Source of the DNA: Rubrivivax sp.
GTDB taxonomy: Bacteria; Pseudomonadota; Gammaproteobacteria; Burkholderiales; Burkholderiaceae_C
Direction of reading: 5' to 3'
Assembly (NCBI GenBank): GCA_027487585.1
Contig: JAIYDH010000385.1
Span: forward strand, 43 to 64,042
Length of the DNA stretch: 64,000 nt
Position numbers and translations under genes: made by a program
Notes under the pieces: model-generated
What the model was told of the DNA's origin: nothing
Seen by the model: the letters and a program-made list of their open reading frames with translations, nothing else
Database searches by the model: none
Shown: piece after piece, positions 12,490 through 45,688 of the stretch
Layout of the letters: the number at the start of each line of letters is the position of its first letter
Position numbering within the stretch: position 1 is the stretch's first letter

Positions 12490-14733
12490 TTACAGCGGCA
12501 ACAGGTTCTGTTCGGTCAGGTCGTTGAAGGGCATGCCCACGACGTTGCGCGCGCCCTCGGTCGGGTGCACGACGTAATCGGCGTTCGTGCCCGAGTTCAC
12601 CATGCGGGTGACCACAGCGCGGACTTGCGTGCCAGCCACCGTCGTCACGCGCGCAATGCAGTCCACCCCGGTGCCGAACGTCGGGTTGCCGTAGTAGAGA
12701 AAGCGCACCAGGCTGCCCGGTGGGTGACGCGCGGCGAGGTCTCTTCCCAGGCCGCCGCTTGCGCGCAGGCTCGGCGCACGCTGCTCGTCGTGGGCAGACG
12801 TGCCGCGTTCGGGTGTGTCGCGCCGGGGCTCGTCTCGCCGCGGCGTGTCGGGCGTGGCCTGGTCGCTCGAAGCACCCGCATAGCGCAAGACCGCATCGCG
12901 CAGCGCAATCCACTTTTCGTTGTGGGGGTCTCGCACCTGTTCGCCGATGAGTTGCAGCTGAGGCAGCAGCCGTACCGGCGCGTACTCCTGCCGCGAGGTC
13001 GCAAAACTGCCAAGCACCTTGCGCAGGGCGTCGCGGTCGGTGGCGCGTTTGAGGACCATTTCTTCCCATTCGTGCTGGCGGTCCAGGGCCAGCCGCAGAT
13101 GGCCGATCCACAGCCACGCTTCGCTGACGAAGCTGTGGTTCAGCGTGGTCTGCAGCGCCTTCCACTCGGCATCCCGGGCCGCGCGGGCTTCGGCCAGTAC
13201 GTCGGAGAATTGTTTGCGCACGTGCACCGTGATCGGGTTGGACACCTCGCCGCCGGCGGCCTGCTCTTCATGGAAGCTCTGCTGCCCCTTGGAGCCGTAC
13301 AGCCTGAAGAACCAGCGCTCTTCAGGCTGGGCCGCGCCGAGGATGCGGATGTATTCGAGCGTGGCATCGGCGCCGATGTCCTTGGCGATGATGGCGATCA
13401 GCTCGCGGAACTTGGTGCCGATCTCCATGTCGTCAGGGTCTTCGCCCAGCCGCAGTGATGCCGCCTTCGAACCCACCAGCGAGGCATAGCGCTCGAGCAG
13501 CTTCGCCTGCACGTTTTTCACCTCGGCGATCACGTCGGGGCTGCGGTTGTAGTTTTCCAGCGTCATCCAGTCGGCGCCGTCGAGGCTGCGCGCTGCCACG
13601 CCCGCGAAGTGATAGCCCCAGATGTCGGCCTGCTCGGTGAAATCGGCATCGATGGTGGGCAGTGAGTAGTCGCGCTTGCCCGAGGCTTCGGCCTGGTTGG
13701 TGAAGATGGCAAATCCTTCTCCGACGTCCGGGCGCGCGTAGGCATTGATGCCCAGCGCCTGCTCCTCGGCATCGGCGCCGTGGGCGGCAGTGGCGCGGCC
13801 ATAGCGCTCTCCGGTGGCGTGTTCGGCGATGGCATTGTGGGAAGTCATGGCGGTTTTGGCCGTCTGCGGGGTGGGAAGCGTATGCGCCTCGGTGCTGTCG
13901 GCCACATGGCCTGCCAGGCGCGTGATCCGCTGGTCTGAGGTGGACCCTGGCTTGATGGGCACCGTGGCGGCGCCGTGGCCCAGCACCACCTCGCTGCTGT
14001 GCTTGCCCTGGTTGCCGATCAGGCGGCCAGCCATCTTGATGCACACGTGCTCGATCATGTTGCTGAAGCGGTCGGCCTCGCCGCGCACGGATTTCTGGCG
14101 GTTCACTGGGCGGATCATGTCCAGCGCCTTACCGCCCACGGCCAGCTTGTTGCCGGCGGTGTTGTCCAGTGCAAAGGCACTGCCCACGCCTTCGAGCTTG
14201 GCATTGGCGCTGGCGATGACGGCGGGAATGGCGTAGAACTCCTTGGGCTCGGCACGGGTGTGGTGCACGGCCATCGAGCCGTCGTCGGCCACGCGCAGCG
14301 ACACATCGGGAGGCGCCTCCGGCGCCACTGTGTAGCCCACGGTGAACGGCGTCTTGCCCGGTGTCTTGGGCGCGCTGTCGAAGCTGGGCAGCCAATCCCA
14401 CATCGAGCTTGACGAGGGCTCTGCCGGCTCCGCAGGCGCTTCCACGACCGAAGGCTTGCTCGATTGCGCCGTGAACAGCGGTCCGCTCTGCGTGGCCACG
14501 CGGTAACCGTCGGGCCGCGTGATGAAGTAGCCCTGAACCACGCCGGCGCGGGCGTCGACGTTCGCGGACCGTGCGGGGCCGAAGGCTGAGGCCATGTGGC
14601 GGCGCTGGGCCACCATGCGCGGGCTGTTCTGCAGGGCATCGGCCGGCGGCGCCGCGTCGCGTGCGGCTGTCTGCGGGGCTACCGCGATTGCGCGCCGCAG
14701 TGCATCGTCGTCCCGCGAAGCTCTGTCTTTCAT
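12490..14733 (-). CDS. Putative eCIS cargo/effector A (747 aa; leader motif + possible Cys-His papain-like domain)
   Basis: Long intact ORF downstream of the eCIS on the same strand; N-terminal SPRMVAQRRHMASAFG motif; 'HVCIK', 'WGYHFAGV', 'TLENY', 'WFFRLYG...QSFHE'. Confidence 0.6.
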   Translation of the reverse strand: MKDRASRDDDALRRAIAVAPQTAARDAAPPADALQNSPRMVAQRRHMASAFGPARSANVDARAGVVQGYFITRPDGYRVATQSGPLFTAQSSKPSVVEAPAEPAEPSSSSMWDWLPSFDSAPKTPGKTPFTVGYTVAPEAPPDVSLRVADDGSMAVHHTRAEPKEFYAIPAVIASANAKLEGVGSAFALDNTAGNKLAVGGKALDMIRPVNRQKSVRGEADRFSNMIEHVCIKMAGRLIGNQGKHSSEVVLGHGAATVPIKPGSTSDQRITRLAGHVADSTEAHTLPTPQTAKTAMTSHNAIAEHATGERYGRATAAHGADAEEQALGINAYARPDVGEGFAIFTNQAEASGKRDYSLPTIDADFTEQADIWGYHFAGVAARSLDGADWMTLENYNRSPDVIAEVKNVQAKLLERYASLVGSKAASLRLGEDPDDMEIGTKFRELIAIIAKDIGADATLEYIRILGAAQPEERWFFRLYGSKGQQSFHEEQAAGGEVSNPITVHVRKQFSDVLAEARAARDAEWKALQTTLNHSFVSEAWLWIGHLRLALDRQHEWEEMVLKRATDRDALRKVLGSFATSRQEYAPVRLLPQLQLIGEQVRDPHNEKWIALRDAVLRYAGASSDQATPDTPRRDEPRRDTPERGTSAHDEQRAPSLRASGGLGRDLAARHPPGSLVRFLYYGNPTFGTGVDCIARVTTVAGTQVRAVVTRMVNSGTNADYVVHPTEGARNVVGMPFNDLTEQNLLPL

Positions 14734-14769
14734 GGGTGTGCCTCTCGACTGCGCCCGGCGCTCGGCGCG

Positions 14770-44397: not shown

Positions 44398-44407
44398 GAG
44401 CCCCCAG

Positions 44408-45688
44408 ATGCAGCGTGTGTGCAAACCCACGAGATCCTCTGACGAAACGCGCCGGGCGCGCAGCGTGGCCGAGCCATCGCCGGCGCCCGACCACTTTCAC
44501 GGGGGACCGCGCATGCTGGCGCAGCGCAAGCAGATCCAGAAACTCTTTGGCGACGGGGCGCAGCCGCCCGTTCCCGTGCAGCGCCGCGTGTACGAAGCCG
44601 TGGTCGACCGCCAATCAGAGGCCGTGAAGATGAGTCCGGAAGGCTCCATCCTGGACGGCAAGGTGGTTCGCCAGCTCGGAATTGGCGACTTCGTCCGCGT
44701 GGACGACGAGGACAAATGGCGTTCGCTGCGCGGTGCCAACGAGGCCGCGCCCACGGCACGGTGGCTGGGGGCGCGCCGGCTCGGGACGGACGACGTGACC
44801 GGCATGTCGGTGTACGTGCCGGACCGCCACCTCAGCGAAGCGAACGAACTCGAGAGCCGGTACATTGGCTCGGCACTGGCGCTGCGCCAGCGCTACGGCG
44901 CGCAGGTGAGCGACGAAGTGGACCGCATCTGCGCCGCCCTCGGGATCGACCGTGCCAACGAGCTGGCCTCCTGGAGCCCGTCGCACGTGGTGCTGTACTT
45001 CGCCTGGATGGCCAAGATCGGCGAGAACCTCTCGACCTTGTTCCCCAGCCTGCAGGCCCACGTCTGCGGCTTGATCGACCGGCACGCCTCAGAGCCGAGC
45101 CAGGACCAACTCAACGAAGACTCAACCGAGGGCATGCAGCTGGACCGGGCCTTGATCGAGCCCATTAACCAGCGGCTGAAGGTGTGGGCCAAGGTGCTGG
45201 CAAACGATGGCAACGAGGTGATCGAATCCCTGATCGACGGTATCGGCGGCAACCCCAAGATGGCTGTGGCGCTGGAGGGTGTGAAGTCGGGGCAGTTCAA
45301 CTTGCTCCAGACCATCGCCGAGTACTTGCGCCTGGGCCAGCGTGCGATCGAGAAGGCCCTGGCGCACAACGACGAGGCCTGGACGCTCGAACTCAAGAGC
45401 ACCCTCGAATCCGTGAGCGGCTGCTACGCGGCGCAAGTCCAGAAGGTTGAAGGCGTTCAGCCAAAGAAGGCGGAAGAGAAGCCCATCGACGCGACGCTCA
45501 GGGACTGGACCTTGCGCGCCGGCGATGTGGGTTCCATGGGCCTGTACAAGGGCACGGTCGAGGTCGACTCCATCGCCGACCTGGAGCCCGGCGACATCGT
45601 CACGAGCATCTATGTCAACGTCGGCCTGACTTACAGGGTCGTCAGCAAGACGAAGGAGTGCGTGGTGCTGAAGGCGGTTGGCCAGTAG
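44408..45688 (+). CDS. Putative eCIS cargo/effector D (about 427 aa, unknown domains)
   Basis: GPRMLAQRKQIQKLFG motif; begins 10 nt after effector C; SH3-like beta segment, helical core, beta-rich C-terminus. Confidence 0.55.
   Translation: MQRVCKPTRSSDETRRARSVAEPSPAPDHFHGGPRMLAQRKQIQKLFGDGAQPPVPVQRRVYEAVVDRQSEAVKMSPEGSILDGKVVRQLGIGDFVRVDDEDKWRSLRGANEAAPTARWLGARRLGTDDVTGMSVYVPDRHLSEANELESRYIGSALALRQRYGAQVSDEVDRICAALGIDRANELASWSPSHVVLYFAWMAKIGENLSTLFPSLQAHVCGLIDRHASEPSQDQLNEDSTEGMQLDRALIEPINQRLKVWAKVLANDGNEVIESLIDGIGGNPKMAVALEGVKSGQFNLLQTIAEYLRLGQRAIEKALAHNDEAWTLELKSTLESVSGCYAAQVQKVEGVQPKKAEEKPIDATLRDWTLRAGDVGSMGLYKGTVEVDSIADLEPGDIVTSIYVNVGLTYRVVSKTKECVVLKAVGQ

Follow-up and report, generated by a model that had tools for sequence, protein, structure and literature searches.

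The window analysed here is a stretch of 64,000 nucleotides from Rubrivivax sp. (contig JAIYDH010000385.1), and all coordinates are positions within it. It holds a complete operon for an extracellular contractile injection system (eCIS), and beside this operon lie five genes, here called A to E, whose products have related N-terminal leaders built around a short box of residues. The box heads many protein clusters and is found only in genomes with contractile injection system (CIS) machines, and therefore it is probably a label for cargo loading. On the computational evidence the tag appears well supported as eCIS-linked. We propose that the box is a lineage-specific, sequence-defined cargo address tag of one eCIS lineage, the one with a SalCis20-like protein of 885 residues, and we give this reading a probability of about 0.68. 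A, B, C and D are proposed to be four separate payloads. The five genes and their leader cores are as follows.

12490-14733, minus strand: gene A, 747 residues, leader and orphan cargo domain (open reading frame translation)
14578-14625, minus strand: leader core of A, SPRMVAQRRHMASAFG (translation)
14770-16185, minus strand: gene B, 471 residues from a TTG start, leader and orphan cargo domain (open reading frame translation; the public gene call has 459 residues)
16024-16071, minus strand: leader core of B, SPRAVAQRRQIDAAYG (translation)
16288-16923, minus strand: gene E, 211 residues from MKTRSD, degenerate leader, acidic repeats and DUF4157/eCIS_core domain (translation and Pfam)
16780-16827, minus strand: degenerate leader core of E, NQREAAQLERIQAAFG (translation)
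16396-16593, minus strand: DUF4157 (PF13699) domain of E, with HEAWH (Pfam)
42355-44397, plus strand: gene C, 680 residues, leader, predicted ADP-ribosyltransferase-fold domain and helical C-terminal domain (translation, AlphaFold2 and Foldseek)
42493-42540, plus strand: leader core of C, SPRMQAQRGALQAAFG (translation)
44381-45688, plus strand: gene D, 435 residues from GTG (426 residues from the ATG at 44408), leader and orphan cargo domain (open reading frame translation)
44504-44551, plus strand: leader core of D, GPRMLAQRKQIQKLFG (translation)

The operon lies on the minus strand between the two gene groups; E, B and A are on one side of it and C and D, on the plus strand, are on the other. 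The motif starts at residue 37 in A, 39 or 27 in B, 47 in C, 42 or 33 in D and 33 in E. An earlier note on this DNA, made from the sequence without database searches, had picked out these five strings of 16 residues, and all five translate exactly as it quoted them. It had presented them as one shared leader; this holds for A to D, which have the strong motif, but the leaders are not equal, since that of E is degenerate. The note was right that the sequences after the leader are unrelated, as BLASTP finds no mutual relation between A, B, C and D outside the leader (all E > 0.6). None of these four proteins matches a family in Pfam or NCBIfam, and the leader likewise has no model in either database. 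The cargo part of A is distantly similar to that of P0146, another tagged protein. Synonymous differences, among them a change of serine codon family, separate the DNA sequences of the five leaders, so the leaders are conserved at the level of protein. Recent gene conversion as a source of their similarity is ruled out by the same DNA alignment.

E is an eCIS_core/DUF4157 protein by Pfam (47.2 bits against a cut-off of 22) with the motif HEAWH, and its stop codon falls just past the DUF4157 domain. Acidic repeats of the form EEEE(L/P)LQ(MK/GRF)..AQR lie between its leader and this domain, at about residues 50-100. Repeats of this type also occur in thousands of short DUF4157 proteins, some of them lacking the SPRM box (Cellvibrio, Daejeonella). 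For E, the one Foldseek match, to the VgrG2b metalloprotease domain, is not significant.

The motif is rare in the genome from which the window comes, which has 4.43 Mb in 413 contigs, 70% G+C and an estimated completeness of 97.8%. The regular expression [PQ]R..AQ[RL].{6}[FY]G matches just five of its 43,761 six-frame open reading frames (ORFs), and these are A to E. Hidden Markov models (HMMs) trained with one leader left out place each of A, B, C and D as the top non-training match genome-wide, with E-values from 4e-5 to 0.017. A profile of 87 leaders, mostly from other organisms and including the cluster representative of A itself, scores A at 47, D at 40, C at 38 and B at 36 bits; the next ORF in the genome has 9.6 bits. 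Gene E is found neither by the leave-one-out models nor by the outside profile, and the observation is thus four strong copies and one degenerate copy. E may still be placed in the family by its position and by the intermediate leaders of its homologues. A recognisable box is present at the position of E's leader in 72 of the 117 closest short DUF4157 proteins, and the leaders among E's homologues form a continuum that runs from SPRMTAQR... through ASERMVAQRQQVEAAFG, HPREAAQRQRIDGAFG and NQRDAAQRQRFDSAFG to that of E. Two early searches gave less: a word-indexed search with the leader region of B recovered B itself only, a method too insensitive for a 16-mer, and a first search for relatives with a weak four-sequence profile missed most of the tagged family.

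The earlier note had suggested a search of the proteome and a large protein set with an HMM of the five N-termini. We compared a profile of the five leaders with one representative per 50% cluster of about 15 billion proteins (1.84 billion clusters), and 145 cluster representatives matched at E<=1e-3 (1.84e9 searched). Their alignment shows that the 16-mer is the core of a box of about 28 residues, L-x-x-A-[IL]-[DH]-[ND]-S-P-R-M-V-A-Q-R-[RKQ]-Q-[LI]-x-[AS]-[AL]-F-G-x-A-x-Q-[RL]. In 141 motif copies from the 145 clusters the residues S, P, R, A, Q, R, F and G are each conserved in at least 89%, with P and Q invariant, and the residues that flank the box drift freely. The median start of the box is residue 44, and it begins within the first 100 residues in 130 of 133 proteins; nearly all members carry it at residues 25-110, in proteins of 78-1314 residues. 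A leader core of another sequence class, Q[RK]xxGNx[AT][VILMT], had no match in the six-frame ORFs of the genome or among 286 proteins retrieved.

Many members continue from the box into acidic repeats (EEEEPLQG[KR]F..[VA]QR) and then into the start of DUF4157 (N.TG[LM]PD.LK.GIE.LSG), and in others the box leads directly into unrelated domains. Pfam was scanned for 108 members. The eCIS_core/DUF4157 domain is present in 60 of them, Endonuclea_NS_2, WHH and Colicin-DNase in two each, and Fic, Toxin-deaminase, TGL, GIY-YIG, Aspzincin_M35 and others in one each; no Pfam family covers the box itself. The twelve Pfam families spread over the tagged proteins make up a polymorphic toxin architecture, a constant N-terminus followed by variable C-terminal domains. 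The suggestion in the earlier note that the leader takes the place of a fused DUF4157 does not stand, because as a rule one protein carries both, the leader upstream of DUF4157 (the same 60 of 108), and 58 of the 63 members with an HExxH motif run at least 126 residues past it into a C-terminal domain. Only five of these 63 stop just after the domain, as E does. The V/L-Q-R/G element, which the note had taken for a possible boundary, does recur as one: it is the xAxQ[RL] tail of the box (FG-xAxQ[RL]), it reappears as VVQGYF in A and a number of relatives, and each acidic repeat closes with it (...LQG[KR]F..[VA]QR).

Some Oxalobacteraceae proteins have two to four tandem, partly degenerate copies of the box. 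At the loci L053, L055, L057, L069 and L072 of this family (Janthinobacterium, Duganella, Undibacterium) the leader consists of tandem units, DNRPEAVAQRKLAEMMNNSPRVLQQRALSDAIHNSPRMVAQR. The tagged DUF4157 gene at these loci is on a contig other than that of the tube gene or more than 80 kb from it.

The association of the box with eCIS was examined across genomes in two ways. One genome per species, for 185,579 species, was scanned with a degenerate DNA pattern that encodes S-P-R-M-[VLI]-A-Q-R-x6-F-G, and 38 stretches matched, about 30 of them true N-terminal boxes. The true boxes are mostly from Burkholderiales (Rhizobacter, Roseateles, Janthinobacterium, Duganella, Massilia, Undibacterium, Ramlibacter, Rubrivivax, Pseudorhodoferax and Mycoavidus), and outside this order they occur in a metagenome-assembled genome (MAG) of Steroidobacteraceae and in Dyella choica. 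About seven stretches were judged to be chance matches (Williamsia CarA, a Planctomycetales MAG, a Terriglobia MAG and others) and served as an internal control. CIS_tube is present above the Pfam cut-off in 23 of 23 genomes with a true box against 0 of 7 with a chance match (Fisher 5e-7). The leader profile finds 82 tagged ORFs in these 23 genomes, one to nine per genome. Nineteen of the 82 lie no more than 30 kb from a tube gene, against an expectation of 1.4% (P about 7e-18), and an eCIS locus with one or more tagged ORFs is present in 15 of the 23 genomes.

The second comparison used an even sample of 301 genomes of the order. At a cut-off of E<=1e-4 the box is present in 4 of the 34 genomes with a tube gene and in none of the 267 without one (P=1.4e-4; 1.2e-3 if the window's own genome is excluded). 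Scoring was confined to the 26 best first-look candidates of each genome, which lowers the sensitivity for both classes alike. The earlier note had named an equal frequency of the motif in genomes without eCIS as telling against its proposal, and this is not what the sample shows. Its main proposal, a modular N-terminal leader tied to eCIS, is borne out by these comparisons, as the leader is found on unrelated proteins, several with known toxin domains, and only in genomes with a CIS tube. The note also expected a genome-wide handle for cargo, and this is what the one to nine tagged ORFs per genome provide, most of them away from the eCIS locus.

Gene order supplies a further link. The arrangement of tape measure protein, AAA ATPase, 885-residue protein and a protein with box and DUF4157 is kept in Rhizobacter, Pseudorhodoferax, Duganella and a MAG (8-kb loci), and in one MAG the protein after the 885-residue gene has the box and no DUF4157. 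Two further eCIS-bearing species of the genus have the box, G020 and G047. G047 has at least five tagged genes, including an orthologue of E followed directly by two tagged ORFs (C39). The single tagged gene of G020 is on a contig that has no eCIS genes. Its product (L022, G020:C466, 3099-5198, plus strand) has 699 residues and the leader SPRLAAQRRQLGSVLGP, and the gene lies between one for a TonB-dependent receptor and those for cyanophycin synthetase; with no eCIS gene on the 11.6 kb contig, it is an example of orphan cargo. A third species, G070, has an eCIS operon that is 30-50% identical, in which the ATPase gene is followed by one for a DUF4157-toxin fusion of 1091 residues. This fusion of the classical type (L034, 4213-7488, minus strand, G070:C11) has an N-terminal motif of another kind, SNPQDAAEREASRLARRLV, and this points to a second leader class within the genus, distinct from the box. 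Leaders are therefore alike within a system and not between systems, with five copies at the present locus and none in congeners with a diverged eCIS.

Gene C allows the relation between box, DUF4157 and cargo to be followed in one payload. Two kinds of full-length homologue exist for residues 90-680 of C. The first kind has 672-682 residues with the box and no DUF4157 (P0274, P0275). The second has 877-919 residues, with another N-terminal region, then DUF4157 and then the same cargo (P0276-P0279), which is 44-59% identical to that of C over about 100% of its length. The C-terminal domain of C is also found in a Massilia protein with box and DUF4157. As the cargo of C occurs both with and without it, DUF4157 appears from these comparisons to be an optional module between address and payload.

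An AlphaFold2 model of C (15-sequence alignment) has a mean predicted local distance difference test (pLDDT) score of 80.8. Residues 1-38 are disordered in this model, the box forms a helix at 48-60, and a low-confidence linker leads to the folded domains. Foldseek returned a coherent set of catalytic domains of the PARP/diphtheria-toxin type of ADP-ribosyltransferase (probability 0.9-1.0, E 0.003-0.5), with no match at E<=0.001, and on the basis of these matches to the model C is probably an ADP-ribosyltransferase toxin. The ADP-ribosyltransferase-like fold spans residues ~205-345, and the helical domain after it has the invariant residues H619, E623, SGT583-585 and W552.

In the corresponding model of E (93-sequence alignment) residues 105-208 adopt a confident DUF4157 fold, and the N-terminal half is of low confidence. 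The sole element in that half is a helix at residues 34-46, which is the box, with pLDDT about 60; it is not docked on the DUF4157 domain. Around the box pLDDT is below 50 in both E and C. The box is thus predicted to be one short helix with S-P as its N-cap and G as its C-cap, and from the i, i+3/4 spacing in the logo we infer that R3, A6, Q7, Q10, L/I11, A/L14 and F15 would share one face. An argument from amphipathicity was dropped, as the hydrophobic moment is not raised above that of shuffled sequence. The N-termini (the first 35-60 residues) are hydrophilic (Kyte-Doolittle means of -0.55 to -1.35) with 65-80% disorder-promoting residues, and they contain no hydrophobic run of 12 residues and no Sec/Tat-type core.

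The operon beside the tagged genes is ordered, by Pfam scan, as Pvc16_N cap, sheath, two gp19 tubes, CIS_tube, VgrG-like spike, gp25, Baseplate_J, two unassigned proteins, CIS_TMP, AAA ATPase, the unassigned 885-residue protein, E, B and A. Its parts are as follows.

40157-41628, minus strand: NarL-type response regulator (265 residues) and HisKA_3 histidine kinase (239 residues), at the head of the operon (Pfam)
25157-40093, minus strand: structural block, with unassigned proteins of 815 and 280 residues, Baseplate_J, gp25, VgrG-like spike, CIS_tube, two gp19 tubes, sheath, an unassigned protein of 310 residues and the Pvc16_N cap (Pfam)
20943-25160, minus strand: CIS tape measure protein, 1405 residues (PF19268, 7.4e-104)
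19616-20959, minus strand: AAA+ ATPase, 447 residues (Pfam AAA, 8.4e-28; Cdc48/PAN-like by PDB and NCBIfam)
16962-19619, minus strand: 885-residue protein, encoded between the ATPase gene and E (phmmer, weak match to PDB 9R9A_B)

The ATPase has a single AAA domain and an N-domain of 230 residues, and it is a candidate loader and unfoldase of the Afp15/Pvc15/Alg15 type. The 885-residue ORF, between those for the ATPase and E, is translationally coupled and matches no Pfam family. Its sole sequence match in the PDB is SalCis20 (9R9A_B), found by phmmer with E 1.7e-5 over about 165 residues, a weak match that makes it a candidate SalCis20-like membrane protein. Since SalCis20 is an inner-membrane protein, the injection system may be membrane-associated. 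The gene keeps the same position in the tag-bearing loci L048, L051, L061, L065, L072 and L074, and it is absent from the tag-less eCIS locus of G070.

The two-component pair lies directly upstream of the Pvc16-like cap gene, and its short HisKA_3 kinase has no obvious sensor domain; the pair is likely to be a dedicated regulator of the eCIS operon. The ORFs for 815, 280 and 310 residues (25157-28443 and 38658-39590, both minus strand) have no match in Pfam or NCBIfam, and the 815-residue ORF is kept in related loci at 27-42% identity. The third-position G+C content of the eCIS island (window about 10000-48000) is 0.79-0.89 against 0.90-0.95 in flanking housekeeping genes. At the edges of the island are a truncated phosphofructokinase ORF (11766-12302), which matches only positions 48-133 of the phosphofructokinase profile, and two glutathione S-transferase genes (46281-47986). 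The lower third-position G+C content and these edges suggest that the island was acquired horizontally.

Cargo loading into the tube lumen in Photorhabdus virulence cassettes (PVC), the antifeeding prophage (Afp) and AlgoCIS needs a disordered N-terminal sequence and an AAA+ ATPase, and the N-terminal domains (NTDs) of cargos are alike within a system and not between systems (bioRxiv 10.64898/2026.05.27.728243; PMC11297309; PMC11495950). Loading in AlgoCIS depends on the NTD upstream of DUF4157 and can do without DUF4157 itself (bioRxiv 10.64898/2026.05.27.728243). By analogy, a component of the Rubrivivax machine would bind the box helix and the AAA+ unfoldase (19616-20959) would engage the disordered segment beside it. 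Cargo would enter the tube lumen as the machine assembles, by threading or by tethering, and contraction would expel it. The tag is modular, as one and the same box heads DUF4157-toxin fusions, toxins without DUF4157 and DUF4157 proteins without a toxin. E, as a separate short DUF4157 protein with its own degenerate tag, would probably be co-loaded.

Several observations count against reading the box as a cargo address. About three quarters of the tagged ORFs are on other contigs or far from eCIS loci, so that their neighbourhood does not vouch for them, though it fits orphan cargo. The 4 box-bearing genomes are few among the 34 eCIS-positive ones of the order sample, and the congeners G070, G067, G076 and G069 have no box despite a similar tube protein; the box is therefore not general. 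E's own copy of the leader is degenerate, the pLDDT of the box helix is modest, and its hydrophobic moment does not exceed that of shuffled sequence. The N-domain of the ATPase does not clearly co-vary with the presence of the tag, with identities of 39-61% in tag-bearing loci against 43% in the tag-less locus of G070.

This last point would also fit a different receptor. The box would still be a loading tag, but it would not be read by the ATPase: cargo would bind the small DUF4157 protein E, and E would bind the spike or the tube-initiator complex, possibly with a location near the tip. The toxin-less short gene E lies immediately upstream of the tagged, DUF4157-less B and A, the same order is found in G047, and E-like proteins of short length abound (4111 at E<=1e-5). 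We nevertheless consider docking through E unlikely. The box and DUF4157 stand in one polypeptide in more than half of the members scanned, and E carries a copy of its own, so that binding of the box to DUF4157 in trans is the less economical explanation. In the AlphaFold2 model of E the helix is not docked on the DUF4157 domain, and the AlgoCIS result (bioRxiv 10.64898/2026.05.27.728243) shows loading that needs the NTD and not DUF4157. The interacting region of the Streptomyces cargo Sle1 is a coiled coil of 440 residues, unlike these short leaders.

A constant N-terminus might instead be what remains when toxin cassettes are swapped, a handle of recombination or ancestry without a role in recognition, which could serve folding, solubility or autoinhibition in the producer. 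Variable C-termini on a constant N-terminus and cargo domains that move between architectures are what such exchange would leave. The protein-level conservation, with its synonymous and codon-family differences, makes this highly unlikely, and so do the eight conserved positions between drifting flanks, which are the pattern of a selected short binding element and not of a recombination scar. The box is also strictly N-terminal, it is present on toxin-less E-like proteins, and the constant N-terminal part of polymorphic toxins is the trafficking part. A tag for some other pathway is scarcely credible, whether Sec, Tat, marker-type targeting to a type VI secretion system (T6SS), a degron or a protease-recognition site. 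The box does have basic residues (QRR/QRK), T6SS effectors do have N-terminal marker motifs (MIX, FIX and RIX), and a zincin-like DUF4157 protein is always nearby that could in principle cleave near [VL]Q[RG]. The basic residues are, however, followed by no hydrophobic h-region, the association with a CIS tube is complete in the 23 genomes and in the order sample, and 56% of the members carry the eCIS-specific DUF4157. A role for a T6SS in this genome is excluded, since a gene for its sheath protein TssC/VipB has no match in the 97.8%-complete assembly.

The reading of the box as a cargo address of one eCIS lineage also has a stronger form. The box could be a true sequence-specific signal, with the capped helix of 13 residues necessary and sufficient for loading in the whole SalCis20-type lineage; in its boldest version E, co-packaged through its own tag, would cut the [VL]-Q-[RG] boundary (FG-xAxQR, VVQGYF, ...LQGKF..VQR repeats) after injection and so release the payloads from their leaders. 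We regard this as decidedly unlikely. If the box were such a signal, it would be the first consensus signal sequence for any contractile injection system, and orphan cargo, up to nine per genome, could be enumerated completely.

The eCIS are being engineered as programmable devices for protein delivery. The box offers a search handle for cargo that is missed by DUF4157, by distance to the operon and by composition classifiers; it yields four orphan proteins at the present locus and many genes remote from any eCIS in relatives. It gives concrete residues to mutate in the search for a receptor, and DUF4157 as an optional module between address and payload makes a natural experiment. The box also suggests that each eCIS lineage has its own tag, as in the cargos of different T6SS classes.

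MIX, FIX and RIX are N-terminal marker motifs of T6SS effectors. Like the box they are short, and they make it possible to find unrelated effectors genome-wide, orphans distant from the machine among them. They serve another machine and have no sequence relation to the box, and the present genome has no T6SS sheath gene.

Among eCIS, N-terminal leaders, DUF4157 as a marker of cargo and the placing of cargo next to DUF4157 genes are already known. Cargo signals have been described as lacking a conserved sequence and as describable by composition only (PMC11297309; bioRxiv 10.64898/2026.05.27.728243). The strings SPRMVAQR, PRMVAQR, SPRMLAQR, PLQGKF, LLQGKF and PLQGRF were not found in the literature searched, which also held no sharply conserved box for a whole eCIS lineage, no occurrence of one with and without DUF4157 and no large set of tagged orphans.

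The signals of PVC and Afp cargos (Pdp1, Pnf and Afp18; Jiang 2022, Kreitz 2023, Steiner-Rebrova 2023) are about 20-50 hydrophilic, disordered N-terminal residues that direct cargo into the tube lumen with the help of Pvc15 or Afp15 (PMC11297309; PMC11495950). They have no known consensus (PMC11297309), and they start at residue 1 whereas the box is internal to the leader. The ATPase of the window also differs from the loaders described there in its single AAA domain (447 residues).

Streptomyces lividans has a small toxin-less DUF4157 gene, Sle2, beside the DUF4157-less cargo Sle1, as E lies beside B and A, and Sle1's N-terminal region is the part that matters, as in the tagged cargos (PMC13277306). 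The N-terminus of Sle1 is, however, a long coiled coil like that of a tape measure and not a short box, no motif shared by Sle1 and Sle2 is reported, and the host is an actinobacterium with a cytoplasmic CIS (PMC13277306). SalCIS of Salmonella enterica subsp. salamae resembles the present system in having a large membrane protein in its operon (SalCis20, PDB 9R9A) and a DUF4157 effector (PMC13266070), with the weakness of the match to the 885-residue ORF already given. In the PVC-metallopeptidase/DUF4157 polymorphic toxins, DUF4157 is N-terminal to variable toxins or in a neighbouring gene and marks eCIS cargo (Zhang et al. 2012; Geller et al. 2021, PMC8213781). The box in contrast lies outside PF13699, upstream of DUF4157, and also occurs without it.

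The closest parallel is the NTD of Cgo1 and Cgo2 of AlgoCIS from Algoriphagus machipongonensis (PMC8894135; bioRxiv 10.64898/2026.05.27.728243), which like the box is disordered, lies upstream of DUF4157 and is common to the cargos of its system, with an AAA+ ATPase in the operon. The AlgoCIS study reports no conservation between systems, and most cargos in the window lack DUF4157. The box, in contrast to the Cgo NTDs as described, is sequence-defined, sharply conserved and found in at least 145 clusters.

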